Below are positions 2,544-63,275 of a stretch of DNA of 64,000 nt, one piece after another. The stretch's first letter is position 1; each line of letters starts with the position of its first letter. The stretch is from a virus. Lineage: Duplodnaviria; Heunggongvirae; Uroviricota; Caudoviricetes. The stretch lies in IMG/VR virus record IMGVR_UViG_3300005329_000001, one strand, 5' to 3'. A program made the position numbers and the translations under genes. The notes beneath the pieces are model-generated. The model saw only the letters and a program-made list of their open reading frames with translations, made no database searches and was not told where the DNA came from.

Positions 2544-3662
2544 ATGAGCGTTCCAGCGCAGGTTCTGAATGAGATGTTCAGCGGTAAGCTGAACTCGTCG
2601 GAGGGCAAGGAGAAGATCGCCGAAGTCGGGTCGGTCTACATCCGTGACCGTCTCCGTGAAGTGTGCTTCGTGGACAAGATCCAGCCGCCGGAGCCGGTGA
2701 CTCGCACCGACTGCCAGCGCTCGGTCAACCACGACACCCTGGTGAAGATCGTCGACATCGAGCCGCAGTCTCGCGCGCTGTCGATCACCTTCCGCGGCCA
2801 GCCGACCGCGCGCTTCATCCGCGCGCCTCGTGCCGAGGTCCCCTTCTTCACGATCTCCTCGGAGAAGTTCGAGAAGACCGAGCAGGAGCTCCTCGCCTAC
2901 GAGATGCCGATCACCAAGATCATCGAGGACAACTCGGTGAAGGACCTCCAGGAGGTCAAGGATCGGACGTGGCTGCTGTTCGTCGAGGCCGGCATCCAGG
3001 CGATGCAGACCGACGGCAACGGCGGCGTGCAGCCGATGAACGTCACCAGTGTGGTGGCGGGCACGACGAAGCAGATCCGCGTCGTGAAGGGCCAGGGCGC
3101 CATCGCGGCGGGTGCGAACGACTTCATCATCCACCCGATCCTCCGCCCGGACCTGGTGAACCTGTTCAAGCTGATCGACGGCAACCGCCTGCGTGCGGAG
3201 CGGCTCCTGATGACGGAGCCCGACTACGACGACATCCTGTCGTGGACGCTGCAGGACTTCGGCGACAAGATGCAGTCGGAGACCGCGGTCGACGGCTACA
3301 AGTACAACACCCTGCTGGGTCGCAAGCTGATCCGCACGGTGAAGACCGACATCCTCCGCGTCGGTAACGTGTACTGCTTCACGGCGCCGGAGTTCCTCGG
3401 CAAGAACTACGTGCTCAACAACACGAAGTTCTACATCGACAAGATCGCGAACATGATCACCTGGCAGTCCTGGATGGACGTCGCCGTGGCGGTCATCAAC
3501 ATCGCGTCGATGGCCAAGCTCGAGCTGTACGGCGGGTCGGTGACCCCGACCTCCACCGACACGGGCTTCGCGGCCCTGCTGCCGGTCGACGAGGACCAGC
3601 TCGGTGCGGTCAACAACAAGGTGGACTCCGGTCTGAAGTTCCCGAACGTCTCGCAGTTCTAA
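2544..3662 (+). CDS. putative major capsid protein
   Basis: 372-aa ORF, SD gggagag; followed directly by a strong intrinsic terminator; size and context typical of HK97-fold MCP. Confidence 0.5.
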   Translation: MSVPAQVLNEMFSGKLNSSEGKEKIAEVGSVYIRDRLREVCFVDKIQPPEPVTRTDCQRSVNHDTLVKIVDIEPQSRALSITFRGQPTARFIRAPRAEVPFFTISSEKFEKTEQELLAYEMPITKIIEDNSVKDLQEVKDRTWLLFVEAGIQAMQTDGNGGVQPMNVTSVVAGTTKQIRVVKGQGAIAAGANDFIIHPILRPDLVNLFKLIDGNRLRAERLLMTEPDYDDILSWTLQDFGDKMQSETAVDGYKYNTLLGRKLIRTVKTDILRVGNVYCFTAPEFLGKNYVLNNTKFYIDKIANMITWQSWMDVAVAVINIASMAKLELYGGSVTPTSTDTGFAALLPVDEDQLGAVNNKVDSGLKFPNVSQF

Positions 3663-3746: not shown

Positions 3747-3783
3747 CCACCTCCAATCGGAGGTAGGAAGCGAGAGGTTGGAG

Positions 3784-4554
3784 ATGTCGTACAAGCTGAA
3801 GAACACGGCACTCGACCACGACAAGCGCTTCCTTCACCGCAAGGCTTCCAAGATGCAAATGGAGCCAGTCATTGGCGGCCGTCGTCTGCGCATTCGCCAG
3901 TCGATGGTCATCAGTGACGAGCTCTTCGAGCACAACAGGGCCAACCTCGAGCTGTGGAACAAGTGGGGTGTGGTCTCTTGGGAGAAGGTCGGTGGGGAAG
4001 GCGGTCGGAGGGTCCCGACGAAGGAAGAAGTCATGGCGGCTGGCTACTCGGAAGAGGCCGCCGAGTCGATCATCGAGCGGGAGAAGCGGCTTGCCGCCGA
4101 AGAGGCTGCTGCTCCCAAGGAGACTCTGTCCGAAGGCGGGCTCCTCTCGCCGCAGCCGGGCGAGTTCGATGTCTGGGTGGGCGAAGTGGGCACCAACCAG
4201 ATCGGCGTGGTGAAGGCTCTTCGTGAGAGCACTCAGCTCTCAATCAAGGAGGCAAGCGACCTTCTCGGCATGGCTCCTGTGATCGTGCTGGGAGGTGTCG
4301 ACGAAGCTGCGGCCACCAAGCTCGCCCAGTCCTTGGTCGATGCCGGAGCCAAGGCCAGCGTGCAGAAGAGCGGGACAGCGCCGCAGCCCTCGCTGATCCC
4401 CGAGACGCTCGTGCCCGAGAACTACACTCCGACGCCGGAATCGAAGCCGTCCGAGGATGCCTCGAGCCTCTTCTCAGAGCCGTCGCAAGCGGAGACGACT
4501 CGCGTCGAGACCAAGCCGCAGGCGCAGCCCAAGAACCCGAAGAGCAAGAAGTAA
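3784..4554 (+). CDS. ribosomal protein bL12 (L7/L12) C-terminal-domain fusion protein: unknown N-terminal domain, bL12 CTD, Pro/Ser-rich tail
   Basis: residues ~128-196 EFDVWVGEVGTNQIGVVKALRESTQLSIKEASDLLGMAPVIVLGGVDEAAATKLAQSLVDAGAKASVQK align along their length with E. coli L7/L12 CTD (EFDV...KEAKDLVESAP...GAEVEVK); ATG 3784 with SD gagaggttggag (track start 3778 is TTG). Confidence 0.8.
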   Translation: MSYKLKNTALDHDKRFLHRKASKMQMEPVIGGRRLRIRQSMVISDELFEHNRANLELWNKWGVVSWEKVGGEGGRRVPTKEEVMAAGYSEEAAESIIEREKRLAAEEAAAPKETLSEGGLLSPQPGEFDVWVGEVGTNQIGVVKALRESTQLSIKEASDLLGMAPVIVLGGVDEAAATKLAQSLVDAGAKASVQKSGTAPQPSLIPETLVPENYTPTPESKPSEDASSLFSEPSQAETTRVETKPQAQPKNPKSKK

Positions 4555-9954: not shown

Positions 9955-12900
9955 ATGGCCGCTGAGCTTCCCCGCCCCGGTGTAGAGGTCGTCCAGGAGT
10001 TCCAGAGTGCGGCGCCGACGATTGTCCGCCCGACTCTGGTCCCCTTCGTCACCGGCCCGGCGAAGGAGATCATCGACGTCCTGAACACCGATGGTACGCT
10101 GAACGCGAATGCCAAGCAGGGGCAGTACAACCAGCTCCCGCTCTTGGTCTCGCAGTCTGCGTTCCCGTCGCCGCGTGGCAACATCGCGCAGGTCAACGTC
10201 GAGGAAGATTCGATTCAGGCCTTCTTCAACTTCGGCGGTTCGCTGCTGAAGCTGAAGAGGAACCCTGGCGAGAGCTTCCTGACCGATTGGAACAACGCAT
10301 CCGCTGCGGCCATCCAGACGCTGCCCGATCCAGTGGGCGACTTCGTGGTCGATGGCCTCACGCTCGTTCTCGCGATCGACGTGCCGGCGCGCCTCAATAC
10401 CACCGAGGACGTAGCCATCACCTTCGCTGGTGCGACCGCTGGCGCTCACCTCACTCCTGCCCAGATCGCTGCTCAGATCAACTCGGCAGTGGGTGAGACC
10501 GTGGCGACGGTAACCACCGACAACCGCGTCCAGATCACCTCGACCAAGTTCGGCGCCATCAGCTCAGTGACCGTTCGCGCCGGCGGATCGGCGAACACCG
10601 CCCTCGGCTTCACGGTCACGAACGAGTACCGCGTCGAGGGCTCGGGCTTCCGTGCTCAGGACCAGAGCAACAACACGGTCCTGTCGCCCTGGGTGGAGTG
10701 GAGCCGCGGCGGCTACCTGGTCAACGGAACCGCCACCACGTTCCCGGCGATCACCAGCGTCACTCCAGGGTTCGGCCTGGTGACGGCGGCGGGCACGTTC
10801 GCCAACTCGCAGGCAGCGGCCGTGACCTTCACCGGGAACGGCTCGATCCAGCTCCAGGTGGGCGACATCTTCTACGCCGACGGCACGACTCCGGTTGCCA
10901 GCGCGTTCGTCAAGAAGGTGGAGGCGAGCCGCTTCAAGATGGGCACGCTGAATGCCCGTCTCTCGATATTCGATGCTGACGGCAACGTCGTGACCCCGGT
11001 CTACGACGACGCCAACCTCAACACCATCTTCTCGTCGGTTCCCTTCGCTCCTCAGTTCGCCTGGTTCAAGGCCGAGAACCTCTCGGTCTCGTCAGTTCCC
11101 CAGGCTGCCGCGGTCACGGGCACCATCGAAGGTACGGCCGCGACTCCGGCGGTGGTCGAGGGCACCGGCGCTCCCGCCGGTCCGTTCAACCTCACTGGTC
11201 TCACGCTGATTGTGAGTGTGACCTACAACGGCGTGGTCCAGGACGACTTCACTTTCACGTTCACCGGCGGTCCGTTCGCGGACATGACGGCCGTGGCTGC
11301 GGCAATCGGCTCCAACATCCCGCACGTCGGCGCAGTCAACGACACCGGCAACCTGAAGCTGGCCACCCTGCTGACTGGTGCCAATCAGTCGCTGACTCTC
11401 CGCAAGACGTCGACTGCGGGAGCCACTCTGGGCTTCACCTTCGGTGGAAACGACATCACTGGCAACGGCCAAGATGTCACGTTCGTGGCGGCTGGTCCCG
11501 TGCTGCTCTCGGGCGACAACCCGAGCTTCAGCGCGCTGCCGACGACCAATCTCGTCCTCAAGCTGTCGACCGATGCGGGGGCCACCTTCCCCACCACGAG
11601 GACGCACACCTTCGGTGCTGGCCCCTTCGCCAACATCGCGGCGGTCATCGCAGACATCACGGCTGACGGTACGTTCATGACGAACCTCACCGTCACCTCG
11701 GTCGGAACGAAGCTGAAGATCCAGTGGAACCCTGCCAGCCCGACCGACCAGAACGTGATGAAGGTCGATGCGACTTCGACTGCCCTCGGGTCGAACAAGC
11801 TGCAGTACACGTCAGGTCAGCAGGCGGCAGGTGTCGACAATCTGTCTGGTCTCACGTTCCAGCTCAAGATCAACAACCGTCCGCACGTCTACCAGGTGCT
11901 CTTCACCAGCAACTCTCTGGTGGATGCGGTCACGGCGATCAATACGATCGTGGGTTGGCCGGTGGCGAGCATCGGCGGCACCAATTCTGACGAGCTGACC
12001 ATCACCTCCGACCTCAAGGGCATCGGCTCCAAGGTCGAGGTGCTGAACAACAATACGACCGCACAGGCAAACATCGCCCTCGGCTTCCCGGGTGGTGCGA
12101 CTGGCGTGGGCTCTGGACGTCCGAACCCGGACTTCTACCTCGACATCTCGGGCAACGTGAACATCGGTGCGGACATCCTCCGCAACCAGGTCACCGGCGC
12201 ACCATACGATCCGGGCCAGTCCGATCTCTACATCCAGTACAAGGGCCTGCGCCTCGATGTCTCGCCAAAGTCGACTGGAAAGCCGGCTCTCATCAGCGTC
12301 TCGGACACGGCGACCCTGACCACGGTCCTCGGGCCGCTGACGCCGGACAACCCGCTCGGCCTCGGCATGTTCTTCGCCGTCATCAATGCCCCCGGCATCT
12401 TGGTGACTGGCATGGGCGTCTCGGACGCTCCGGCGGCGGCACCAGATGGCACGCTGGCGGCCTACTCCGAGGTGGCGAACTTCATCGAGGCGCAGGAAGT
12501 CTACGCCATCGCCCCGCTGACCCACGATGAGACGGTGGCCCAGATGTTCAAGGCCCACCTCCAGCTCATGGAGTCGCCGGAGCAGAAGGGCGAGCGCATC
12601 CTCTTCTTCAACCCGCTCGTCCCGAGCCGCGGCAATGACGTCGTGGTGGCATCGGGCTCCAACGGCTCGACGACCCTCACGCAGAACCAGTTCGTCACCG
12701 ACGTGAACCCGACGGCGGCTCTGGTCGCCAATGGCGTCAACCCGGCGAACCCGATTCCGGTCTCTGCGGGCGTCTACCTGCAGCTCACCGTGGACGGCGA
12801 AGTCCGCAACTACAACGTCTCTGGCGTCAACGGTGTCGTGCAGACGCTCAACACGACGTTCGCCACCGGCGAGAACACCGACGGCTTCTTCACCACGACT

Positions 12901-15585: not shown

Positions 15586-15765
15586 ATGCCTACCCAGCAG
15601 AGCAGTGTGAAGGACGAGGAGGCGGTGTCGGAGCTGGTGTCCTACGTGGAAAGCGTTCACCGGCGCGTCAAGGAACGCAGGCAGAAGGTGAAGGATGGCC
15701 CCGACGAGCAACGAGCAGTTCATGGAGCTGGTCTACGCGAGCAAGCTACTCGCAAAGACCATTGA
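15586..15765 (+). CDS. small hypothetical protein (59 aa)
   Basis: internal ATG of ORF 15349..15765 with SD aaggaaggtgcaggg; overlaps next gene by 70 nt. Confidence 0.25.
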   Translation: MPTQQSSVKDEEAVSELVSYVESVHRRVKERRQKVKDGPDEQRAVHGAGLREQATRKDH

Positions 15766-16246
15766 TGAGGTAGACGAGAAGCTCGCCAACGCCATCGACA
15801 AGATCGAAGGTCATCAAGAGCAGCTCGCAATCCTCAAAGACCTCGTCTCCACTGTCGACAAGAAGCTCGAGCTCCTTCCACTAGTCCTCGCTGGGAAGCT
15901 GGAAGACCTGGTCGATAAACGCGCTCGCCAGGCGTTCGAAGACATCCGCACTACTCTCGACGAGCTCCGCAACAAGCTCTACGCCATCAGGAAGGAGCAG
16001 AAGCAGATCCGCGAGCAAACGGGTCAGCACCTGCTTCCTCCTAAGCCTGCGGTTGAGAAACCGGATGATGAAGTGCTGTCTGTGCGGAAGGGCAAGTTCC
16101 GGTTCGATCTTCCTTGGGATGAGAAGACGAACAAGGTAATCAGAACCATCATCTACGCTCTGCTGAGCGTGGCGGGTGTTGGAACGGCGACAGGGGGTAT
16201 CTGGGCGCTGGTCGATCGCCTGAAGCATCTCTTCCATGGGGGATAG
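15695..16246 (+). CDS. coiled-coil protein with C-terminal transmembrane helix
   Basis: 183-aa ORF; heptad-rich N-terminal 140 aa then IIYALLSVAGVGTATGGIWALV. Confidence 0.5.
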   Translation: MAPTSNEQFMELVYASKLLAKTIDEVDEKLANAIDKIEGHQEQLAILKDLVSTVDKKLELLPLVLAGKLEDLVDKRARQAFEDIRTTLDELRNKLYAIRKEQKQIREQTGQHLLPPKPAVEKPDDEVLSVRKGKFRFDLPWDEKTNKVIRTIIYALLSVAGVGTATGGIWALVDRLKHLFHGG

Positions 16247-16248
16247 AT

Positions 16249-16551
16249 GTGGATCCAGTGCTCCTCATCGGCCTCCTCCTCGCTGGATGCGTCATTGCCG
16301 CACTTGTCGTGACCTGGAAGCTCGATAGTACAGTCCGAGAAGTCTCCGCCCATGTGACTTTCCTGCTGGCGAAGGTCGAGGGGCAGGACCAACATGTCGG
16401 CTGCAACGCCGACAACTTCCGCAAGCTCCTCAGCCCGATTCATCAGCTCGCAGAAGACGTCGCCGAGCTTGATGAAGATCTCCTTCGCCTGCAGAAGCTC
16501 TTCGAAGAGCTAAAAAAGCGGATAGACCAGTTAGGCCCATCCGCTCCGTAG
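16249..16551 (+). CDS. N-terminal TM plus coiled-coil protein (type II membrane topology)
   Basis: 100-aa ORF; LLIGLLLAGCVIAALVV TM; last gene of + operon. Confidence 0.5.
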   Translation: MDPVLLIGLLLAGCVIAALVVTWKLDSTVREVSAHVTFLLAKVEGQDQHVGCNADNFRKLLSPIHQLAEDVAELDEDLLRLQKLFEELKKRIDQLGPSAP

Positions 16552-18147
16552 TTACTCGGTTGCGGGGTAGATGCACATCACGAAGTCGCCGGGATGGCTG
16601 TCGATCTTGACCGTCTGTATGTTGCCATCGTTGAACTGCAGGAGGTCCTGGTAGCGGCCTTCGGGGTCGTTGGTCGGCTGCTGCTCTCCATTCACATTCT
16701 GCACTTTGATGAGGACGGCGTAGAAGGTGATTCCGTCGAGATAGACGACACCGTGGAAGTTGTCCTCGCCCTCCATCGGATGCAGCTCTCCGAAGCGGAA
16801 GCCGCCCGCGGTCGGGAGATGCCGGCGATGGAAGTTGGCCTGCCGGTCGTGCCCGACGCTGGTGCTGTTCAGGTACTGCAGGTAGCCAGGCGACTCGGAC
16901 CGCTTGAGCTCGTCGAGCTGCTCGAGCAGGCCGCGTTGGCGAGACTTCAGCCGCAGCGCCTCCTCCTTAGGATGGTCTTGGAAGTTCATCTCATTGAGCT
17001 GTCCGATGAGGGCCATTGCAGCTCGGGCGAGCCCAGTGATTGCGGCTTCTTGTAGTCGATGCTTGCCGAGATCGAGCTCCGACAACTCCTTGGAGATGGG
17101 GCACATCAACTTGCCTCGAGGAAAGCCGTTCTCGTCGGTGACGACACTGTCGAGAACCTTGTCGGGTTCGAAATTGGAGCGCTTCATCTCCTCTTCGCTG
17201 AAGAGACAGGGAACAGCCGTGATCTTCTTTCTGGTGCTCGTCTCGTTCTGAGAGTACTGACGCTTGAGTGGGCGAAGGTCTTCGGCGAAGCCCGGCGTCT
17301 TGGCCGCCTTGCGGAACCCGTTGCGGTCTGGGTCGTGGTCTGGGTGAGGGCAGGTCATGGTGTCTCCGTTCTTCTCTGCAGCGCTCATGTAGTACCTCGC
17401 TTGTGGGAATGCGTCGTCGAATTGCTTGAGGAGACGAGTCGCCTGCTCGATCGGTCTACGCTTCCTCTCCTCTTCCATCGCCGCATAGGTGTTGTCGAGC
17501 ACCTGGATGAAGAGCGCGGCTTTGCCCTCTTCGATGTAGACCTCGAAGTCTTCTTGATCCGGCTCGTCTGAGACGTGGAAGCCAGCGCCGTGCATGGCGC
17601 GCCACACCTCGTTGTTGGCCCCGCGATAGCCGATCCAAGTATAGGCGTCGTCATTCTTGGGCAGGCCGTGCCCGCAGCCGCACTCTCGTCGGTGAGCGAG
17701 CTCGGCGTCGATCGACCCTTGGAATCGATAGTGGCCGCAGTCTGAGCACATGTCGATGTGCATGCCGCAGGGAATGCCGAGGACAGCCTCGTTGTGCGGG
17801 TTATCCCCGCCTTCGTGGCGATTGTCCATGTGGAGCCAGCCGACACTGCCGCATTCGCAGAGCTCGAAGGATTGGGAAAGCTCATCCTTCCTGCAACGCC
17901 AGAAGAACTTCGGCCTGCCACCGAGGTGTCGAGTGACTCTTTGAAGAGCCATGCTGTCACCACAGACGTTGCAACTGGGGCGAGGAACAGCGACGGTGGC
18001 ATTGCACTCATCACACTTGAGCGCGGTGACCTGGCAGTAACCACCACCCATCAAAACCGTATACGATGAGTAGTGCTTCATGGGTCCGTGTCGACGGCAC
18101 ACGGGTCCATCCTTGGCGGGCATGAAAGCCCGCTGCTCCTCAACCAT
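16552..18147 (-). CDS. large Cys-rich protein with multiple zinc-ribbon-like CxxC pairs
   Basis: 531-aa ORF, SD aggaggaca upstream; N-terminal half has at least 5 CxxC/CxC clusters. Confidence 0.55.
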   Translation of the reverse strand: MVEEQRAFMPAKDGPVCRRHGPMKHYSSYTVLMGGGYCQVTALKCDECNATVAVPRPSCNVCGDSMALQRVTRHLGGRPKFFWRCRKDELSQSFELCECGSVGWLHMDNRHEGGDNPHNEAVLGIPCGMHIDMCSDCGHYRFQGSIDAELAHRRECGCGHGLPKNDDAYTWIGYRGANNEVWRAMHGAGFHVSDEPDQEDFEVYIEEGKAALFIQVLDNTYAAMEEERKRRPIEQATRLLKQFDDAFPQARYYMSAAEKNGDTMTCPHPDHDPDRNGFRKAAKTPGFAEDLRPLKRQYSQNETSTRKKITAVPCLFSEEEMKRSNFEPDKVLDSVVTDENGFPRGKLMCPISKELSELDLGKHRLQEAAITGLARAAMALIGQLNEMNFQDHPKEEALRLKSRQRGLLEQLDELKRSESPGYLQYLNSTSVGHDRQANFHRRHLPTAGGFRFGELHPMEGEDNFHGVVYLDGITFYAVLIKVQNVNGEQQPTNDPEGRYQDLLQFNDGNIQTVKIDSHPGDFVMCIYPATE

Positions 18148-18161
18148 GTTGTCCTCCTGAT

Positions 18162-18524
18162 TTAGGCGGCGGGTGCTACGCAGTACTTCTCGACGAAGGG
18201 CATGACCTGAGATACGAACGGCTTCTGCACATAGCCGTCTGCGCTCTTGTTGCTGACGAGATCGACTGAGCCGGTGAAGACGATTACGGGGATGGCTTTG
18301 AGGCGGGGATCGATGTCGCGGAAGATCAGGAACTCTTCTCCGTTCATCACCGGCATCGAGTAGTCGAGAAGGATGAGCTCTGGTCTCTCGTTCTCGTCAT
18401 CGGTGAGATAGGCCAGGGCGTCTCTTCCATTCTGTTCGCCCCATGCCTCGTAGCCAGAACTGCGGAGCATGTCGATCAGGACCTGGCGGACGGAGTCGTC
18501 ATCATCAACGACCAGGATCATCAC
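18162..18524 (-). CDS. stand-alone response-regulator receiver domain (CheY-like)
   Basis: LVVDDDDSVR acid pocket, LILLDYSMP phospho-Asp, IVFTG Thr, VQKPF Lys-Pro all present; 120 aa, no output domain. Confidence 0.8.
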   Translation of the reverse strand: MMILVVDDDDSVRQVLIDMLRSSGYEAWGEQNGRDALAYLTDDENERPELILLDYSMPVMNGEEFLIFRDIDPRLKAIPVIVFTGSVDLVSNKSADGYVQKPFVSQVMPFVEKYCVAPAA

Positions 18525-18589
18525 GTACCCCCAGTAGGGATGTTGCGCTAGTCAAAGACTGTATCACGTCGGTTTTCGCGTGTCGACGA

Positions 18590-19024
18590 TTACCCTATTT
18601 TCGCCTCCGGCAGCCAAGTGTTCCGTGACCACAGGTAGTTGCGGTACTCGGTCAAACTCTGCACTGGTCGCTGAACGCTTGGTGACACTGGGATCATTGG
18701 TGGCCGGAGATGGCGCTTCCACCGCTTGAAGTCCCGGACTCGCTTCCTGATGTAGCCTCGCAGCGTCTTGGACCAGCAGACGTCGCACCAGCCGCGGTCC
18801 GGCGTGTAGCCGCGTCCCATGTCCTCGTACTCGGCTTCGCCGATGAGGTGCTTCATCTCGTCGCAGTCATCGCAGCCCCTGCACCAGGGAGTGCGGCGAG
18901 ATCCTCGATGATGGGAGCTGATGCAGATGAAAGTGAGGCAGGGTACTTCGTGTCTGCAGCCGCGTGCGCGGATGCGGTTCTCAGTTAGCTCAACGCCGTA
19001 CACGTCCCTTCCTGGTAGCAACAC
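18590..19024 (-). CDS. Cys-rich hypothetical protein
   Basis: 144-aa ORF, GTG start with SD aagggggtg; overlaps 3' end of 18990..19253 by 35 nt. Confidence 0.45.
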   Translation of the reverse strand: MLLPGRDVYGVELTENRIRARGCRHEVPCLTFICISSHHRGSRRTPWCRGCDDCDEMKHLIGEAEYEDMGRGYTPDRGWCDVCWSKTLRGYIRKRVRDFKRWKRHLRPPMIPVSPSVQRPVQSLTEYRNYLWSRNTWLPEAKIG

Positions 19025-19253
19025 GTTTCACCCCCTTGGCTGCGACACGCTTGCGAATGAGGATGTAGCGGCACGTCGGTCCGCGGCTCGGCTCCGTCGT
19101 GATGACGTAGCCGTCTTTCCGCAGGTCGTAGATCCTCGCCGGGGATCGCCTCCCGCACTTCTTGATCAACGCCTGCACAGGCACTCCTTTTGCTCCGCCC
19201 TTCTCGAGCAGAGACAAAACAGAGGCCTTCTTGGACAACGTATCTTTGCTCAT
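18990..19253 (-). CDS. small basic winged-helix-like DNA-binding protein
   Basis: 87-aa ORF, motif GAGATAAGAGggagtggagg directly upstream of ATG; basic C-terminus. Confidence 0.5.
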   Translation of the reverse strand: MSKDTLSKKASVLSLLEKGGAKGVPVQALIKKCGRRSPARIYDLRKDGYVITTEPSRGPTCRYILIRKRVAAKGVKRVATRKGRVRR

Positions 19254-19286: not shown

Positions 19287-21476
19287 CTATCCTCTCGACC
19301 GCAAATACTTCTCAAAATTCTGAATCACCAGATTCTGAAGTACGCGGTCGACAGAATTCTCGTCATCTCGAGAAGAGGCATTACGCCAGAAGCGAGGAGG
19401 TCCGAACATCTTCCTGCATTCCTGATCGTCGATGCCGCCGTCGATAACCAAGGTGTACACGTTCACACCTCTCTGCCGCGCCCATTGGATCTCCTTCATT
19501 ACATACTGCTGAAGGACCCAGGTGGGGAGGCCTTGTCCACTGCTCTTCGCGCTGCACGGCGATCCATCTGTCAGCAGGAAGAGGTATTTCGCCATTCCAG
19601 GGGACATCTGAGTCAGCAGGTATCGAGAAGCGACGCGGATCGCCGAGTGCATTGGGGTCAGGCCACCACACTCGACTGGGATTGAGTAATTCTTGCCGGC
19701 CGGCTTTGCAGAGCCCAAGTAGCCCTCGCATTCGCGGTCCCAGCGGTAGATCCAGACCTGACCACTTCTGTCGTATTTTCCACCCTCTCCGCCTCTGAAT
19801 CCCCAGCGCCGGCCATCAACGAAGGGGAAGCGAAGAGAGCGTCGGAGCATCTCTCCCGCATGCATTACTTGGTAAAGCCGCTCACCGTCCATCGAGCCGG
19901 ACATATCGCAAAGGGTGAGATATCCGAACCCTTGGTTGTTCATATCCTGCTCGAAGATCGAACTGTCATTCGGCTCGATAGCGAACTGAATCGCTGAGTC
20001 GACGTCGATGCTGACCCCGCTCTCGTTGCGCTGCATCTTCTGCCTACCGAGAGTCCTGAAGAAGACGCTGCGCATTCTCTCGACCGCTTCGAGCTCTTTC
20101 TCCTTCAGTGCGACCTTCGAGCGGATGTTCTCCGGCTTCACGTCGATGAAGAGAATCTTCGCCTTGGCGTCGGCCATGAGCTGGCTATCGGGAGAGACTT
20201 GCGTCATCCCATCGCGGAAGCTGTCGATTGCCTGTTGCATGTCCCCATCGATTTGACCGATGTCCTCATCGGTCGGGATAGCGCCGTCGACGTCCTGGAA
20301 GACCTGGGCGATTGCCGACCGCACGGCGTCGGGCACCGTGGTCATGTCGACTTTGTCGGGAAGGGGATGGTTCTCTTGCTCGTCGAACTGAGTCGAGTGG
20401 CGGATCAGAGAGCTGAGAGCATTGCTCACCTGTGACGCGTCGGGGACGGGTACATCGCCTGTCCCCTGGTCGTGTGGCTCGGAAGCACTGGCTGATTGCG
20501 ACGCTCCATCGGGAACGCTGCCTCCAGCTTGTCCCTGATCACTTGCTCCTCCGGCATCTCCTGGGGTGCCAGACGAAGCTCCGGCTCCGGCACTGCCCGC
20601 TTGGGCCTGCTGCGCATCTTGTCCTCCTTGTTGTGGCTGTTGTGGTGCCTGCGAAGGAGGGGGAGGATGCATCTCTTCGAGCAGTTTGTCTAGACACTGA
20701 TTCAGGGCAAGGCGGGCGACGACGAGGGATCGCTGGTATCCCTTGTACCGGATGTGGTGCATGCCCCATTCGATGCAAGGCCGAAGAGGCTCAAAAGGTC
20801 CATCTGATACGGTAGGAGTTCCAAGCGCAACGGCGAAGAGAAAGGCGATGAAGTTCTCGCTGTTGGCTTCTGCTCCTCGACTATTAGAAATACGCGTCCA
20901 TCGTCTCCAAATTCGATCCGCAGAGCCGGGGTAGAGAAGCTCCCAAAGAGAATTGCAGCGAATATCATCGAAGGCGTTGAGGACGTAGAAAAGGAATCTT
21001 TCGAGTTGCGCAGGATCAACATGTGGCGCCTTCTGCTTGAGTTCGTGGACCCAAGGCGCGAGGAAGAGCTTCGCAGTCTTGGGGTCCGTCTTGAAGAGAA
21101 TGTGCTGCCATTCGTGCTCGAACCCAAGGTAACCCTGCTCAGCTCCGCAAGTCATGCACGAGAGTGTATCGCCGGGCAGTACGTCGAGCTTGCCCTCCCA
21201 CTCGTGTCCGCAGGCGAGTCGGTAGGTATGCCGTCCTCGTGATTCGCCGAGCAGCTCCACCACCTCTTGGTCGATCGGATCGGCGAACTTCACCCAGATG
21301 GTGGAGGTGCAGTCCGTCTGATTCTGATGACCCTCCTGCACCCTGATGTCCTTCTTGTAGGCCCGCTTGAATGTATCGTTGGTGCGATAGATCGGGTTCT
21401 TGTCGATCGGAGCCTCATAGTGTCGATTTGGTGGAGGAGACTTGCCACCAGAAACATAGTAAGAGCTGTTCGCCAC
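19287..21476 (-). CDS. VWA-domain protein (CobT-like), partner of AAA+ ATPase
   Basis: C-terminal MIDAS LTLCDMSGSMDG ... FLLTDGSPC; central Gln/Gly/Ser-rich linker; 729 aa. Confidence 0.7.
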   Translation of the reverse strand: MANSSYYVSGGKSPPPNRHYEAPIDKNPIYRTNDTFKRAYKKDIRVQEGHQNQTDCTSTIWVKFADPIDQEVVELLGESRGRHTYRLACGHEWEGKLDVLPGDTLSCMTCGAEQGYLGFEHEWQHILFKTDPKTAKLFLAPWVHELKQKAPHVDPAQLERFLFYVLNAFDDIRCNSLWELLYPGSADRIWRRWTRISNSRGAEANSENFIAFLFAVALGTPTVSDGPFEPLRPCIEWGMHHIRYKGYQRSLVVARLALNQCLDKLLEEMHPPPPSQAPQQPQQGGQDAQQAQAGSAGAGASSGTPGDAGGASDQGQAGGSVPDGASQSASASEPHDQGTGDVPVPDASQVSNALSSLIRHSTQFDEQENHPLPDKVDMTTVPDAVRSAIAQVFQDVDGAIPTDEDIGQIDGDMQQAIDSFRDGMTQVSPDSQLMADAKAKILFIDVKPENIRSKVALKEKELEAVERMRSVFFRTLGRQKMQRNESGVSIDVDSAIQFAIEPNDSSIFEQDMNNQGFGYLTLCDMSGSMDGERLYQVMHAGEMLRRSLRFPFVDGRRWGFRGGEGGKYDRSGQVWIYRWDRECEGYLGSAKPAGKNYSIPVECGGLTPMHSAIRVASRYLLTQMSPGMAKYLFLLTDGSPCSAKSSGQGLPTWVLQQYVMKEIQWARQRGVNVYTLVIDGGIDDQECRKMFGPPRFWRNASSRDDENSVDRVLQNLVIQNFEKYLRSRG

Positions 21477-21485
21477 GGGATACTC

Positions 21486-21911
21486 CTACTTGACGACTGG
21501 ACCATAAACATGAAACGCCACCGCTCCCATTTCCAGTAGGAAGCTGCCGAGATATGGGAGAGCGTAGGAGAACTTCTTTCCAACAACGTTCGTGTCCTCC
21601 TCTTCCGGCACCGTGCCTCCCGTCGGGATGACGTGATAGGTGTATGGCACGAGATTTCTATCGTTGGCGTCCACTTCTGCCCAGATCGAGACGTGCTCCT
21701 TCGGCACGGCGTAATTGCCCATGATCTTCGTCTGTGGATGAATGCCGCGGACGACGACGGTCTTGATGCGCCCGCTAATTCTGCGCACCACCGCGCCTCT
21801 CGGCATCTTGACGATGGCGGTGTAGGCCTTGAGCTCTCCAGTGAGCTCGCGGCGCTGCATCTCTTCTTCAGAACCGCCGAGCGGGAAATCGAACTCCTCG
21901 ATCGTTTTCAT
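21486..21911 (-). CDS. hypothetical protein
   Basis: internal ATG (MKTIEEF) of ORF 21486..21986; between AAA+ and VWA genes. Confidence 0.45.
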   Translation of the reverse strand: MKTIEEFDFPLGGSEEEMQRRELTGELKAYTAIVKMPRGAVVRRISGRIKTVVVRGIHPQTKIMGNYAVPKEHVSIWAEVDANDRNLVPYTYHVIPTGGTVPEEEDTNVVGKKFSYALPYLGSFLLEMGAVAFHVYGPVVK

Positions 21912-22141
21912 TCTTCCTCTCCCTTTCTGAAGTCCGAATACGTGCCGTCGCAGTAGCGCCAGCCGCTGATCTTGCATCGAACGCACTTCACGAAGGCAGC
22001 GGCATCATCAGGGCCAGCACCGCCGCGGAGTATCTTCTCTCTGAAGCTGTGCCAGCCGTTGTCGCAGAACCACAGACCAATGCGCTGCCATCTCGTGAGA
22101 CGCGTCTGAGCAGAGGCGGCGCTCTCACGATAGGGGTTCAC
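21908..22141 (-). CDS. small Cys-containing hypothetical protein
   Basis: 77-aa ORF with 4-nt overlaps to both neighbours. Confidence 0.4.
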   Translation of the reverse strand: MNPYRESAASAQTRLTRWQRIGLWFCDNGWHSFREKILRGGAGPDDAAAFVKCVRCKISGWRYCDGTYSDFRKGEEE

Positions 22142-23118
22142 TTGCCGTCCCAGAACTCAGTGACCGTGGCGCCCTTGAAGATGGAGCCCACCCGGGCCAG
22201 GGCGGTCTTCCTCTCCTCGCCCTCGTATTTGCACACCAGCATTTGAAGCGCAGGCTTCAGTCCGTTGGTGCGAACCGTCTGCAGCGTACGGACGATGTCT
22301 CGAGTGGAGAGGGCGTAGCCGATCGCCTTCTGCCTCGACTCCTTGGCGAATCGAAGCATCAGATCGGTGATGTCTTCCATCGCCGCATCCATCTGACCGA
22401 GATTGGCGCGGATGATCTGCTTCTCGTATTCGGTGGGCGGGTAGTCCGTCTCGATCTCGCTCATGCGAGACTTCAGATCCTCGTTGAGATCGTAGGTGCC
22501 TCCGTACACCGACGGATTCATCGTCCCGGTGAACCACACCGTGCAGCCCTGGTTGAGTCGGAAGGTCTGCCCAAGAGAGTCCACTTCCACCGCGCGCTCT
22601 TGCAGGACGCCGTTGAGCATCTTCTGCGACTGCGGAGTGAGGGCATTGAACTCCTCGAAGAGCAGGATGCACCTGCCGACTTCATTGGCGATGCGGATTG
22701 CCTTCGGCAGACCAGAGAGCACGAACTTCGTCTCTCGCCCCACCAGGACATATCGCCCGATGAGCTGCAAGTCCTTGGTGTTCTCTGAGCACTCCACCAC
22801 GACGAGTGGGATGCGCCAGGCGAAGGCTGCGGCTCGAATCGAGAGAGACTTCCCGTTGCCCTTCGGTCCCTTCAGCAAGAGATTGCCGTGGTCCTGAAAA
22901 GCGAGAGCTTGATACTGCGGCATCAACCCGAAGACGTCGACGAAGGGGACGGTCTGGTTGACCAAGAGCTCTGATGCAGGTGTGCAGATGATGGGGATGT
23001 GTTTCTCGTCGGCATGAGCCGACCGTTGGATCTCTCCTCGTGAGTAAAGGGATTCGATCAGCGCAGTCTTCTGATCAGCCGGCAGTCCATCGAGCCATTG
23101 GTTCCACGGATTCGACAT
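22138..23118 (-). CDS. MoxR/CobS-like AAA+ ATPase
   Basis: Walker A LLLKGPKGNGKS, Walker B CILLFEEFN, sensor TGTMNP; 326 aa. Confidence 0.8.
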   Translation of the reverse strand: MSNPWNQWLDGLPADQKTALIESLYSRGEIQRSAHADEKHIPIICTPASELLVNQTVPFVDVFGLMPQYQALAFQDHGNLLLKGPKGNGKSLSIRAAAFAWRIPLVVVECSENTKDLQLIGRYVLVGRETKFVLSGLPKAIRIANEVGRCILLFEEFNALTPQSQKMLNGVLQERAVEVDSLGQTFRLNQGCTVWFTGTMNPSVYGGTYDLNEDLKSRMSEIETDYPPTEYEKQIIRANLGQMDAAMEDITDLMLRFAKESRQKAIGYALSTRDIVRTLQTVRTNGLKPALQMLVCKYEGEERKTALARVGSIFKGATVTEFWDGK

Positions 23119-25544: not shown

Positions 25545-25991
25545 CTAGGCGGGGGTCTTATTGAGCGTTTCGAAGGGTATCAGAGCCTCTCGGAAGAGGT
25601 CTTCCACCATGCCACTGTTCTGGCTCTGGTAGTACTCGCGCACAACGACTCGGACGATGCCTGCGTTGATGATTCTCTTGGCGCATTCGTAGCACGGCGA
25701 CACGGTGCAGTAGAGCGTGCAGCCCTCCGCCATGATCCCAGCTTGATCGATGGCATTCGACTCGGCATGGAGGGTGCGGATGCAGCTCTGTCGGCCGTCG
25801 ATCTCCTTCATGAGATGCCCCACGTCGTCGCAGTGAGGCATCCCACGGGGAGATCCATTGTAGCCTGTGGAGACAATCGTCTTGGTCGCGTTGTTCACGA
25901 GAACCGCCCCCACATGCTTGCGATCGCACGTGGCTCTGGTTGCAGCATGATCTGCGATCCCCAGGAAGTACTCATCGACTGTCGGTCTCAT
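25545..25991 (-). CDS. dCMP deaminase (cytidine/deoxycytidylate deaminase family)
   Basis: zinc motifs HAESNAI and SPCYECAKRI (H-x-E ... PC-x2-C). Confidence 0.85.
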   Translation of the reverse strand: MRPTVDEYFLGIADHAATRATCDRKHVGAVLVNNATKTIVSTGYNGSPRGMPHCDDVGHLMKEIDGRQSCIRTLHAESNAIDQAGIMAEGCTLYCTVSPCYECAKRIINAGIVRVVVREYYQSQNSGMVEDLFREALIPFETLNKTPA

Positions 25992-50259: not shown

Positions 50260-50811
50260 TTACTTCTTCCTGCGCTTCTCGTCGAACGCCGGCGGCAGAG
50301 CCAGAGCCTTCTGCACATCATTCAGGCGCTTCAGGTTCGGAGAGACCGTCGTTTCGAACCAGGCCTTGAGTGGCTTGTTCTCGGCGGTGTTGGGAATCTC
50401 AGATGTGTTGACCAGAGCGGCTGTCTGCTGCAAGCCGGCGGCAGCGCGATCGAAGGTCTTCTTCCGCTCGATGAGTCGACCCTTGAGAACGTCGAGGCTG
50501 CCGGTGGTTGCCCGCACTCCGATGCCGGAGAGGTTCTCAAGCTCGCGCCCGTACGATTCGATGAGGTACTTGCGAGCTCGTGAGGCTGTCTTGCGGATGA
50601 GCTGGGTGCTCTGGCTGTTCTCCCTCGGAGTCGAAGCTAGGCCCATCACAACGCGGGTGACGAAGCCCCAGGAGTAGTACTTCTGTGGCTGGTGCTTCGC
50701 GGCCCAGTCGAGGAAATGGGCGACGCTCTTGTAGTGGGCCGTCCGCTCGTCGTCGGGGAGAGGAGAGTAGCCCTTGATGTTGTCGTGCGACTTCGCAGCA
50801 GCCATGTTCAT
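50260..50811 (-). CDS. hypothetical protein
   Basis: 183-aa ORF, SD ggaggaccta. Confidence 0.5.
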   Translation of the reverse strand: MNMAAAKSHDNIKGYSPLPDDERTAHYKSVAHFLDWAAKHQPQKYYSWGFVTRVVMGLASTPRENSQSTQLIRKTASRARKYLIESYGRELENLSGIGVRATTGSLDVLKGRLIERKKTFDRAAAGLQQTAALVNTSEIPNTAENKPLKAWFETTVSPNLKRLNDVQKALALPPAFDEKRRKK

Positions 50812-51710
50812 AGGTCCTCCAGAATTTGATAGGCCTCCACCACGCTTTCGTACATCTCTCTCGTGTCGTCGGTGCCTGACGAATCAGGATGATACTTTGC
50901 CGCGAGAGTTTTGTACTGCTTCTTCGCCTTCTTCTTGAAGTCTTCTGAGATCCTACCTCCGAGCGGTGGATCAAGATGAAGAACGTGACAGGCCTGAATG
51001 ATCTTCCCGCGATTCATGCCACGTCGCTGGCTCTCCGATGTCCGTCGCATACGGTCGAGCTTGTGCTGGTAGTGCTCGAGAATCACCCGGAGCTCGCCTT
51101 CGAACTCCCGGTACGTCTTCTCGATCACGCCGGGATCCACACCCTCGAGCCGAGCATGGAAGTAGCCGGAGATCATGCCCCTAAGGTTTGCCCAGAAGAG
51201 CTTCGGATCGTCGTCTTTGCCCGTCTCCTGAACCTCTTCCACCACGGGCGCCGGTGGAGGGGGTACGACAATCCGAGGAGGGGCACTCGGGTTGCGCTTG
51301 TGAATCACCGAGCCGTCAGGCAGAAGAGCAGCCGGGAAGGAGTCGTATTCTTCCAACGTCTTGGTGAGCGCAGCGGCTACCTCTACACCCAGCATCGAGG
51401 CCTTCTGCTTCGCCTCCCTCATCAGCTTGGTAGCCGTCCGCAGCGGCAATTTTTCATCACGGATGCGCAGCCACAGCACATCAGCGACGTCGCCGTAGCC
51501 GAGCAAGGTCGAGCGTCCTTCGATCGCGTAGGGAGTCTCCTCGAGCTCCTTGGACAGCCACTCTCGCTTGGAGAGCAGAGATCCATCGGTGCGATTGATG
51601 GTTGGAAGAGCGGCCTGCCAAATCTGACGCTCGAGAACGGCCAGCTCCTTCTCGCTCTTGCCGTCCTTGTGGTTCTTGTACAGCGCAATCAGCTTCTGGT
51701 AGTCCTCCAT
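50808..51710 (-). CDS. J-domain (DnaJ-like) co-chaperone protein
   Basis: C-terminal KKQYKTLAAKYHPDSSGTDDTREMYESVVEAYQILEDL with HPD tripeptide; SD ggagaggttgagca. Confidence 0.7.
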   Translation of the reverse strand: MEDYQKLIALYKNHKDGKSEKELAVLERQIWQAALPTINRTDGSLLSKREWLSKELEETPYAIEGRSTLLGYGDVADVLWLRIRDEKLPLRTATKLMREAKQKASMLGVEVAAALTKTLEEYDSFPAALLPDGSVIHKRNPSAPPRIVVPPPPAPVVEEVQETGKDDDPKLFWANLRGMISGYFHARLEGVDPGVIEKTYREFEGELRVILEHYQHKLDRMRRTSESQRRGMNRGKIIQACHVLHLDPPLGGRISEDFKKKAKKQYKTLAAKYHPDSSGTDDTREMYESVVEAYQILEDL

Positions 51711-57888: not shown

Positions 57889-58557
57889 GTGAAGGTCATC
57901 TTTCTGGACATCGACGGCGTTCTCAACACGAACAAGAACTACGAAGAGTACGCCAGGGCGCAGCGCGAGGACCCGGAGCAGAACCCGGAGGTGCAGGGAC
58001 GGATTGACATCATCCACCGCCACGTCCACCTGCTCTTCGACGAGATCTGCATCACCAACCTGAACTCCATCATCCGCTCGACGGGAGCGAAGATCGTCAT
58101 CAGCTCGTCGTGGAGGCACTTCTACGACGACGCCAAGGGCAGGCCAAAGTTCGGCGACCTGGTCGAGCTACTGAAGCGTGTCGGCATGATAGGGGAGGTC
58201 ATCGGCAAGACACCAACCAACCTGCCGAGGAGGATGTCGGAGTCGGTGCCCCGAGGAAAGGAGATCAAGCGCTGGCTCGATGAGAATCCGGGCGTCGAGG
58301 CCTTCGTCATCCTCGACGACACGGCTGATATGGCCTCGCTGCGCCACAAGCTGGTGCGGACCAGCGCACGAATCGGGCTCTCGCTCAGGGACATCGACAA
58401 GGCGCTGCGCCATCTCGGTATCGCTCGTCTCTCGGCAAGGAAGATGCACCTCCAAGAGGCAGAGGTGCGACATGCCGAAGCAGTCCGAAGACAAGCTCTA
58501 CGAAGAGGCAAAGCGTCAGGAAGCAATGGCGAAGAAACTGGACCCGACGCCGCGTGA
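57889..58557 (+). CDS. HAD-superfamily phosphatase (polynucleotide 3'-phosphatase-like)
   Basis: N-terminal MKVIFLDIDGVLNT (DxDGT/V motif I), later ISSSWR and VILDDT motifs; GTG start. Confidence 0.6.
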   Translation: MKVIFLDIDGVLNTNKNYEEYARAQREDPEQNPEVQGRIDIIHRHVHLLFDEICITNLNSIIRSTGAKIVISSSWRHFYDDAKGRPKFGDLVELLKRVGMIGEVIGKTPTNLPRRMSESVPRGKEIKRWLDENPGVEAFVILDDTADMASLRHKLVRTSARIGLSLRDIDKALRHLGIARLSARKMHLQEAEVRHAEAVRRQALRRGKASGSNGEETGPDAA

Positions 58558-62642: not shown

Positions 62643-63275
62643 TTACTTCTCCTGGAGGACGTATGGTTTGAGGACGATGTGCGGGTAGAGCTCGACGAAG
62701 CGCGCGAGAGGAGGGAACAGGTGAATCTTGTGGTCGACGAGGTCTTGTCCCTTGACCCAGAGCCACTCCTCACACTTACCAGGCTCCATGACCTTGGGTA
62801 TACCGAACGCGTCCTCATGAGCCGCCTGAGTGAAGAGCGTAACCCAGTGTTGCAAGCCTCGATCCTTGTCGTCCCAGATGTTGTCTACCCACTCGAGGGT
62901 ATGGAAGCGAGCGACAGGCATGTCGATGCCAGTCTCTTCGAGTAGTTCCGTCCTGACTTGGGCGAGAGCTGACTTCTTCGACTCGAGCTTGCCGCCAGGC
63001 AGGCCCCACGTGCCGGCGCCCTGCGAGCCCTTACGCTTTCCGACGAGAATTTCGCCGGCCTTGTTGAACAGCACGACGACGATGCCGACACCGTAGCCCG
63101 TCATACCTCCGTTGTAGCGACGACGAGAGGCGTCGAGGTGGTTGATTGCGACCTCCAAGAGCTCGAGCTGGAGGTGCGTCGGGTACATCGCTTTCCAGTC
63201 TCTGCGGGCGGCGTGAAGAGTGGAAACAGCGTCTTTCTGCTCCTCGTCCGACAGGTCACCCCACTTGCGCGCCAT
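62643..63275 (-). CDS. NUDIX hydrolase (MutT-like)
   Basis: Nudix box GLPGGKLESKKSALAQVRTELLEETGI (Gx5Ex7REUxEExGU). Confidence 0.8.
   Translation of the reverse strand: MARKWGDLSDEEQKDAVSTLHAARRDWKAMYPTHLQLELLEVAINHLDASRRRYNGGMTGYGVGIVVVLFNKAGEILVGKRKGSQGAGTWGLPGGKLESKKSALAQVRTELLEETGIDMPVARFHTLEWVDNIWDDKDRGLQHWVTLFTQAAHEDAFGIPKVMEPGKCEEWLWVKGQDLVDHKIHLFPPLARFVELYPHIVLKPYVLQEK

Follow-up and report, generated by a model that had tools for sequence, protein, structure and literature searches.

We find that a phage encodes a stand-alone receiver domain of the two-component type. The gene, here called REC, lies on the minus strand at 18162..18524 of the 64,000-nucleotide stretch of viral DNA that was analysed (the window). 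A Pfam Response_reg match, alignment with CheY and Spo0F, an AlphaFold2 (AF2) model, Foldseek searches and dN/dS together confirm, at the level of sequence and model, that REC is a classical two-component receiver domain with a complete catalytic set, and the protein is predicted to be phosphorylatable. Bacteria sense their surroundings mainly through two-component signalling, and to our knowledge almost nothing is known about viral interference at the phosphotransfer step. The annotation of REC is sound, and genes of this type are uncommon yet have been noted in phages before. What distinguishes REC, as far as the alignments indicate, is that it belongs to an isolated, phage-specific clade, that it has a short helix alpha4 like that of kinase-coupled cellular relatives and that it is accompanied by a conserved orphan neighbour. 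The role that we tentatively prefer is that of a competitor for the phosphoryl groups of the host.

The receiver domain and the phage that carries it

REC can start at a GTG at 18524, giving a protein of 120 aa, or at an ATG at 18521, giving 119 aa. The ATG is the start picked by gene callers on the matching metagenome contigs, and a GGAGG-type ribosome-binding site lies 6 nt 5' of the equivalent ATG in the relatives. The original prediction had described a stand-alone receiver with all of its catalytic residues intact, and the motifs that it quoted are all present in the protein: DDDD at residues 7-10, LILLDYSMP at residues 50-58, IVFTG at residues 81-85 and VQKPF at residues 99-103. The profile search that had been proposed as a check succeeded, with a score against Pfam Response_reg (PF00072) of 57.5 bits (E 1.8e-15; gathering cut-off, 30.2 bits) over profile positions 1-103 of 111, and REC also matched four PHROG families at E-values of 6e-16 to 2e-5. 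The receiver domain fills the 120-aa protein, and there is therefore no output domain, as had been claimed. When REC was aligned with E. coli CheY and B. subtilis Spo0F, D7/D8, D54, T84 and K101-P102 fell on CheY D12/D13, D57, T87 and K109-P110, and Y98 fell on the CheY switch residue Y106. HMMER alignments of REC to the Spo0F chains in the PDB gave the same placement of the active site, so that the conserved aspartate is present on careful alignment. Position D+2 is Ser in REC, and T+1/T+2 are Gly/Ser.

The label "CheY-like" given in the original prediction is only partly appropriate. Textbook regulators of the CheY, Spo0F and DivK types were matched with HMMER E-values of 1e-10 to 1e-7, and there were 65 matches to NCBIfam subfamily models, all of them far under the cut-offs of those models (37.9 bits against a cut-off of 189 for the CheY model PRK10610 and 33 bits against a cut-off of 200 for CheY_Halo). 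Since no subfamily cut-off was reached, REC is CheY-like in the sense of the generic receiver fold and not in the sense of CheY proper; Pfam scans of the window open reading frames (ORFs) also found no CheA/CheW-type domains.

The AF2 model of REC, built from a 7-sequence alignment, has a pLDDT of 87 and a pTM of 0.84. Its elements follow the order beta1-alpha1-beta2-alpha2-beta3-alpha3-beta4, a 3-residue turn, beta5-alpha5, which is the doubly wound (beta-alpha)5 fold except that alpha4 has shrunk to the 3-residue turn. A Foldseek search against the PDB returned receivers only (RR468, PhoB, DivK, Spo0F, CheY4 and Rcp1), with TM scores of 0.78-0.85; the model gave TM scores of 0.83-0.84 against RR468, the PhoB receiver and DivK, and rmsd values against PDB receivers of 1.8-2.0 Å. 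The shortening is also visible in the spacing between the conserved T/S and K residues, which is 17 in the phage clade versus 22 in CheY and Spo0F, making alpha4 5 residues shorter.

The gene content indicates that the carrier of REC is a large uncultured soil phage. A major capsid protein is encoded at 2544-3662 (PHROG 2522 match and tblastn to annotated capsids); its identity is 26-28% with the annotated capsids of Salmonella phage Arash (181 kb) and of Vibrio phages of 187 kb. A GpA-type terminase is encoded just 5' of the window start, and the window has a gene for a collagen-like, tail-fibre-type protein (PHROG match). Contigs 74.8 and 124.6 kb long also carry the window sequence, and one of 209.9 kb carries a relative; the contigs with this phage (75-210 kb) are gene dense, and almost all of their ORFs are without Pfam matches. 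These features bear out the earlier claim that REC is phage encoded. Searches of 50,697 phage records by blastn and tblastn found no related cultured phage, and no tRNA genes were found in the 64-kb window. Other recognisable genes in the window encode a dCMP deaminase (25545-25991, minus strand), a protein with a DnaJ domain at its C-terminus (50808-51710, minus strand), a protein with a HAD_SAK_2 "Swiss army knife" RNA-repair HAD domain (57889-58557, plus strand; 110 bits) and a NUDIX hydrolase (62643-63275, minus strand). The gene right after the major capsid gene (about 3778-4554, plus strand) has a match to the C-terminal domain of ribosomal protein L7/L12 (PF00542, E 2e-12), an unusual domain for a protein of the head module. 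No Pfam match to a histidine kinase (HisKA), HATPase_c or Hpt domain was found in the roughly 95 window ORFs or in the 10 kb upstream, which together cover about 74 kb; the phage genome measures at least 125 kb.

Searches of viral databases also returned cellular genes. The matches to REC in phage records were mostly NtrC, CheA and PhoB on bacterial contigs deposited under phage names, and the scan of IMG/VR with REC gave only RcsC-type hybrid kinases of 949 aa (L001, 3618-6467; L002, 2717-5563). Cellular genes among such "viral" matches are contamination and swell the apparent number of phage response regulators.

An isolated phage clade and its cellular relatives

Six distinct orthologues of REC were found in phages: the window protein (also on L004-L006 and L099), P0002, L003 (the 209.9-kb JGI contig), L016, L017/L018/L100 and L015. 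Identity to the window protein ranges from 56 to 67%, and wherever flanking sequence is available the gene occupies one syntenic slot. D7, D8, D54, T/S84, Y98 and K101-P102 are kept in all six (Ser at position 84 in L017), in line with the earlier claim of an intact catalytic set, and 48 of the 120 positions are invariant. The invariant positions include alpha5 and the C-terminus (P109, V111, E112, K113 and C115), and the D+2 position differs between the orthologues (S, M, K or R). Among the five diverged, syntenic orthologues, dN/dS was 0.21-0.45 at dS values of about 0.3-1.8, which indicates that REC is a real gene under purifying selection.

A HMMER search over 1.84 billion representative sequences gave 136,406 receiver-containing proteins, and only one other 50%-identity cluster was near REC (62%); the remaining top scores were multi-receiver hybrid kinases with at most 43% identity. 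In the genome and metagenome scans, the identity to REC dropped from 57% straight to 45% or less. By these comparisons, the phage proteins form a small isolated clade, with everything else at most about 45% identical. The GC content of REC (57%) equals that of the phage (59%), unlike that of the nearest cellular loci (61-71%), suggesting that the acquisition of REC is old.

The nearest cellular relatives are 31-41% identical to REC over its full length and are mostly stand-alone receivers, and the 13 best genome matches are all of 163 aa or less. Several of the nearest relatives are encoded directly 3' of histidine kinases, in some cases with overlapping stop and start codons: P0005 lies 3' of a hybrid kinase, P0007 lies 3' of a bacteriophytochrome kinase, and the receivers of L019, L025 and L029 lie 3' of PAS/GAF kinases. 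The shortened alpha4 is common to these cellular relatives and the phage proteins, the T/S-to-K spacing in the relatives being 16-20, and a spacing of 16-17 is also found in P0007 and in three Myxococcota loci (Byssovorax, Pyxidicoccus and Myxococcaceae). It is likely from this shared feature that the short alpha4 of REC was inherited from kinase-coupled cellular relatives. Among the best 80 genome loci by REC alignment in the GTDB scan, all with 45% identity or less, many were from Myxococcota and many others were from Acidobacteriota. Regulators are abundant in both phyla and the patterns used for the search were biased, so the phylum signal is at most a hint that either phylum was the donor or is the host.

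Gene neighbourhood and an orphan Cys-rich protein

Small genes on the minus strand form an array of about 23 kb, from about 39.5 kb to 16.55 kb, with REC at its distal end. The array converges on a plus-strand structural and tail block ending at 16551. Two small proteins of 183 and 100 aa (15695-16551, plus strand) end the structural block and converge on the REC unit. Both are kept in relatives, with only sub-threshold matches to helical families (CHASE3, DivIC and DUF1664), and they might be candidates for lysis or tail-accessory proteins.

The genomic context upstream of REC includes three minus-strand genes within 19287..23118, encoding an AAA_5 (MoxR/CobS-like) ATPase (22138-23118), a DUF7352 protein (21486-21986) and a protein of 729 aa (19287-21476) that has a cluster of Cys residues near its N-terminus and is VWA-like at its C-terminus (Pfam 23.7 bits, cut-off 23.8). 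The assignments come from Pfam, PHROG and NCBIfam matches. The trio is syntenic in L003, L016 and L017, and the 729-aa protein had no match in the 50,697 phage records. The winged-helix protein that had been named as a neighbour corresponds to an 87-aa basic protein encoded two genes upstream of REC (18990..19253, minus strand); its assignment is borderline (HTH_39 at 21.3 bits, which equals the cut-off; phrog_4973), and the gene is conserved in relatives, with 66% identity in L003. Between it and REC lies an ORF of 88 aa (18590..18856, minus strand), taken from gene calls on L004-L006, the longest ORF at this locus being 18590-19024. The 88-aa ORF had no tblastn match in L003, and L016 and L017 have other genes in its place.

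The 65-nt gap 5' of REC contains a promoter-like element, TCGACA-17 nt-TACAGT with an upstream TG (extended -10), at 18558..18586 on the minus strand, next to a G-rich ribosome-binding site. The consensus scan found no more sigma-70-like matches in the region than expected by chance, and the weight of the element therefore rests on its conservation: TGATAC and its flanking bases are kept at the same position in L003, L016 and L017. The window has no second copy of TGATAC in a promoter context and no repeated phage promoter motif. We regard the sigma-70-like element as a candidate promoter of REC. It is also the sole clue to timing, and the placement of REC in an "early operon" by the original prediction is not established.

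The Cys-rich neighbour named in the original prediction is an orphan protein of 531 aa encoded directly downstream of REC (16552..18147, minus strand); its gene starts 14 nt past the REC stop codon and has its own AGGAGG site. The pair, with a spacing of 14-20 nt, is found in four lineages: the window, L016 (Cys-rich gene at 10001-11419), L017/L018 (10001-11578 in L017) and L015 (411-1451). The Cys-rich family has five members of 454-531 aa among 5.8 billion proteins, always encoded directly 3' of the phage REC; the IMG/VR scan found none, and the GTDB genome scan found no prophage with a member of the family. The invariant motifs include C.DCGxxGWLHM, AExxHRxxCGCGHGLP, GQLNEMxFxD, GEQ..(V/T)(N/H)DP and GD(F/Y)V(M/L)C(I/V)YP. 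Pfam, NCBIfam, PHROG, PADLOC and a PDB profile search gave no match to the Cys-rich protein, and its AF2 model is unreliable (pLDDT 47), with Foldseek matches at the level of noise (E of 0.14 or more). In L003, the Cys-rich gene (10380-11777) has at least four compensating frameshifts and its neighbours, including REC, are intact; either the gene has become a pseudogene in this lineage or the assembly is wrong at this spot. An intact REC next to a broken Cys-rich gene suggests that REC can act without this partner. From its position, the Cys-rich protein may possibly be a partner or an output of REC.

Possible roles of REC and comparison with known systems

We propose that an ancestor of these large soil phages took REC long ago from cellular, kinase-coupled stand-alone receivers. 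The protein would acquire a phosphoryl group on D54 either from acetyl phosphate or by docking, via helix alpha1 and the loops of the active site, on a histidine kinase or phosphotransfer protein of the host. REC would thereby serve as a sink or decoy that competes with the cognate regulator of the host for phosphoryl groups and for docking sites on the kinase, so that one signalling pathway of the infected cell would be damped. Because the sequence examined showed no kinase or Hpt domain, the phosphate would need to come from the host. Such competition, which the original prediction had already put forward and which needs nothing more from the phage, is our preferred explanation, and we consider it nearly as likely to be right as wrong. 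We infer that a host kinase phosphorylates REC, that REC acts as a sink and that a host pathway is targeted from the receiver identity of REC, the conserved catalytic set, the lack of a kinase in the sequence examined, the kinase-coupled relatives and the decay of the Cys-rich gene in L003. Chemotaxis, development and envelope stress, which the original prediction had put forward as possible targets, received no support. Three points argue against a role purely as a sink. The residues of alpha5 and the C-terminus are invariant, although a sink would need only the active site and the kinase-docking face; the same Cys-rich gene is tightly 3' of REC in four lineages, which hints at an output partner; and the kinase search spanned about 74 kb, whereas the genome has at least 125 kb and may encode a kinase elsewhere.

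A possible but less likely explanation is that REC is a switch: phosphorylated by a host kinase, it would report the state of the host and toggle the Cys-rich or the winged-helix phage protein, like a response regulator with its output domain on a separate polypeptide. The invariance of alpha5 and the C-terminal residues across the phage clade fits such a role, as do the presence of the conserved promoter-like element 5' of REC only and the preservation of the REC/Cys-rich pair at 14-20 nt while the gene or genes just 5' of REC have been swapped between lineages. However, these phages share their gene order throughout the region, so that the kept adjacency is weak evidence of coupling, and the Cys-rich gene of L003 is broken while REC is intact. 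A C-terminus resembling VEK(Y/F)C is partly found in cellular relatives without such a partner, and the Cys-rich protein has neither a recognisable domain nor a reliable model.

Single-domain receivers such as CpdR, RssB and DivK are able to act as adaptors or allosteric regulators of kinases, and REC could likewise mimic a host regulator and bind a kinase, protease, motor or pilus component as an adaptor or inhibitor, independently of phosphorylation. The NCBIfam matches to DivK-like, CpdR and RssB models go in this direction but are weak and non-specific, and REC reaches the cut-off of no subfamily. In addition, the phosphoryl-transfer residues and the T/Y switch pair are conserved in orthologues that differ at about 40% of positions, and such full conservation of the catalytic set is unexpected for an adaptor because the chemistry would be dispensable. 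We therefore consider this explanation improbable.

The competition that we prefer can also be cast in a more specific form, in which REC is a viral phosphate sink that short-circuits an anti-infection pathway of the host, either a Detocs-like system in which it mimics DtcB or a developmental or motility phosphorelay of the myxobacterial type, with a co-transcribed Cys-rich zinc-ribbon protein as its partner. We consider this version improbable as well. The literature searched held no functional study of any phage stand-alone receiver, no phage-encoded anti-Detocs receiver and no viral anti-defence protein acting by phosphate scavenging.

The cREC (cyclic-phosphate processing receiver) of jumbo phages is a divergent receiver-fold domain that is never linked to kinases, is found beside NAD+/ADP-ribose enzymes and keeps the catalytic aspartates (PMC7824862). 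Like REC, it has a receiver fold and is encoded by large phages, and the phage studied here also has NUDIX and HAD_SAK_2 RNA-repair-type proteins, so REC could be imagined as an enzyme of the cREC type acting on cADPR or 2',3'-cyclic phosphates in NAD+/RNA conflict systems. In contrast to cREC, REC is a classical receiver with a strong Response_reg match and kinase-coupled closest relatives, and it is flanked by genes for a winged-helix protein, a small ORF product and the Cys-rich orphan; about 40 kb separates it from the NUDIX and HAD genes, which belong to another neighbourhood. An annotated viral cREC matched the REC model poorly (TM 0.60, 10% identity, E 5.7e-3) compared to a TM of 0.8 for classical receivers, and we reject this assignment as very unlikely. 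An equally far-fetched idea is that REC is a functionless passenger, a recently captured fragment of a host gene of the kind that large phages commonly carry, which is contradicted by its synteny in five or more diverged lineages at nearly saturated dS, by the low dN/dS (0.21-0.45), by its phage-like GC content and by the lack of any cellular homologue above about 45% identity in exhaustive searches.

The REC clade is a clean test case, combining a complete catalytic set, clear purifying selection, no detected kinase, a recognisable ancestry and a candidate partner gene. If REC does drain or read the kinase signals of the host, phosphate hijacking would be established as a phage strategy.

Compared with CheY, Spo0F and DivK, REC has the fold and the active site in common (identity of 24-33%; Foldseek TM of 0.78-0.85) but differs in its shorter alpha4 and reaches no NCBIfam equivalog cut-off; the NCBIfam subfamily models and the Pfam scans of the window gave no evidence of a role in chemotaxis, sporulation or the cell cycle. 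A closer parallel is offered by cellular single-domain regulators that are adjacent to kinases, such as the bacteriophytochrome-associated Rcp1, D. radiodurans BphR and Thermotoga RR468. These share with REC the (beta-alpha)5 fold, the catalytic residues, the stand-alone architecture and the short alpha4, whereas REC is without an adjacent kinase, belongs to its own clade (45% identity or less to others) and lies amid phage genes.

Receiver folds in viral proteomes are uncommon and already known. The viral structure library gave 27 receiver-fold matches at an E-value of 1e-3 or less, mostly giant-virus hybrid kinases, with a small number of regulators and stand-alone proteins from tailed phages. 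Of these, gp30 (149 aa) of Alteromonas phage vB_AmeM_PT11-V22 resembles REC most closely in structure (TM 0.80). This protein and gp11 (147 aa) of phage A5 have been described as putative CheY-like auxiliary genes (PMC10579305), and both are, like REC, phage-encoded single receivers without an output domain. In contrast to REC, to which they are 24% identical, they are about 30 residues longer, and their genes belong to marine Alteromonas phages and lie beside tail-fibre and chaperone genes without a Cys-rich partner gene. From these differences, the receivers of V22 and A5 and REC clearly appear to be independent acquisitions.

The known system nearest to our preferred explanation is Detocs, in which the stand-alone receiver DtcB is proposed to soak up phosphate from a kinase on its phospho-accepting Asp (bioRxiv 10.1101/2023.01.24.525353). 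The REC, L016 and L017 orthologues had no match at an E-value of 0.001 or less in PADLOC 2.0.0, a library that may lack a DtcB model, so membership of REC in the DtcB family is unsupported; no kinase gene adjoins REC that would correspond to the operon of the DtcA kinase and the DtcC effector. DtcB is host encoded in a three-gene anti-phage defence operon, whereas REC is phage encoded, but the mechanism proposed for DtcB is the one that we propose for REC. DtcB provides an experimental precedent for phosphate buffering by a stand-alone receiver, which supports the view that REC could be a sink, and such a sink, if real, could tie in with kinase-based immunity such as Detocs.
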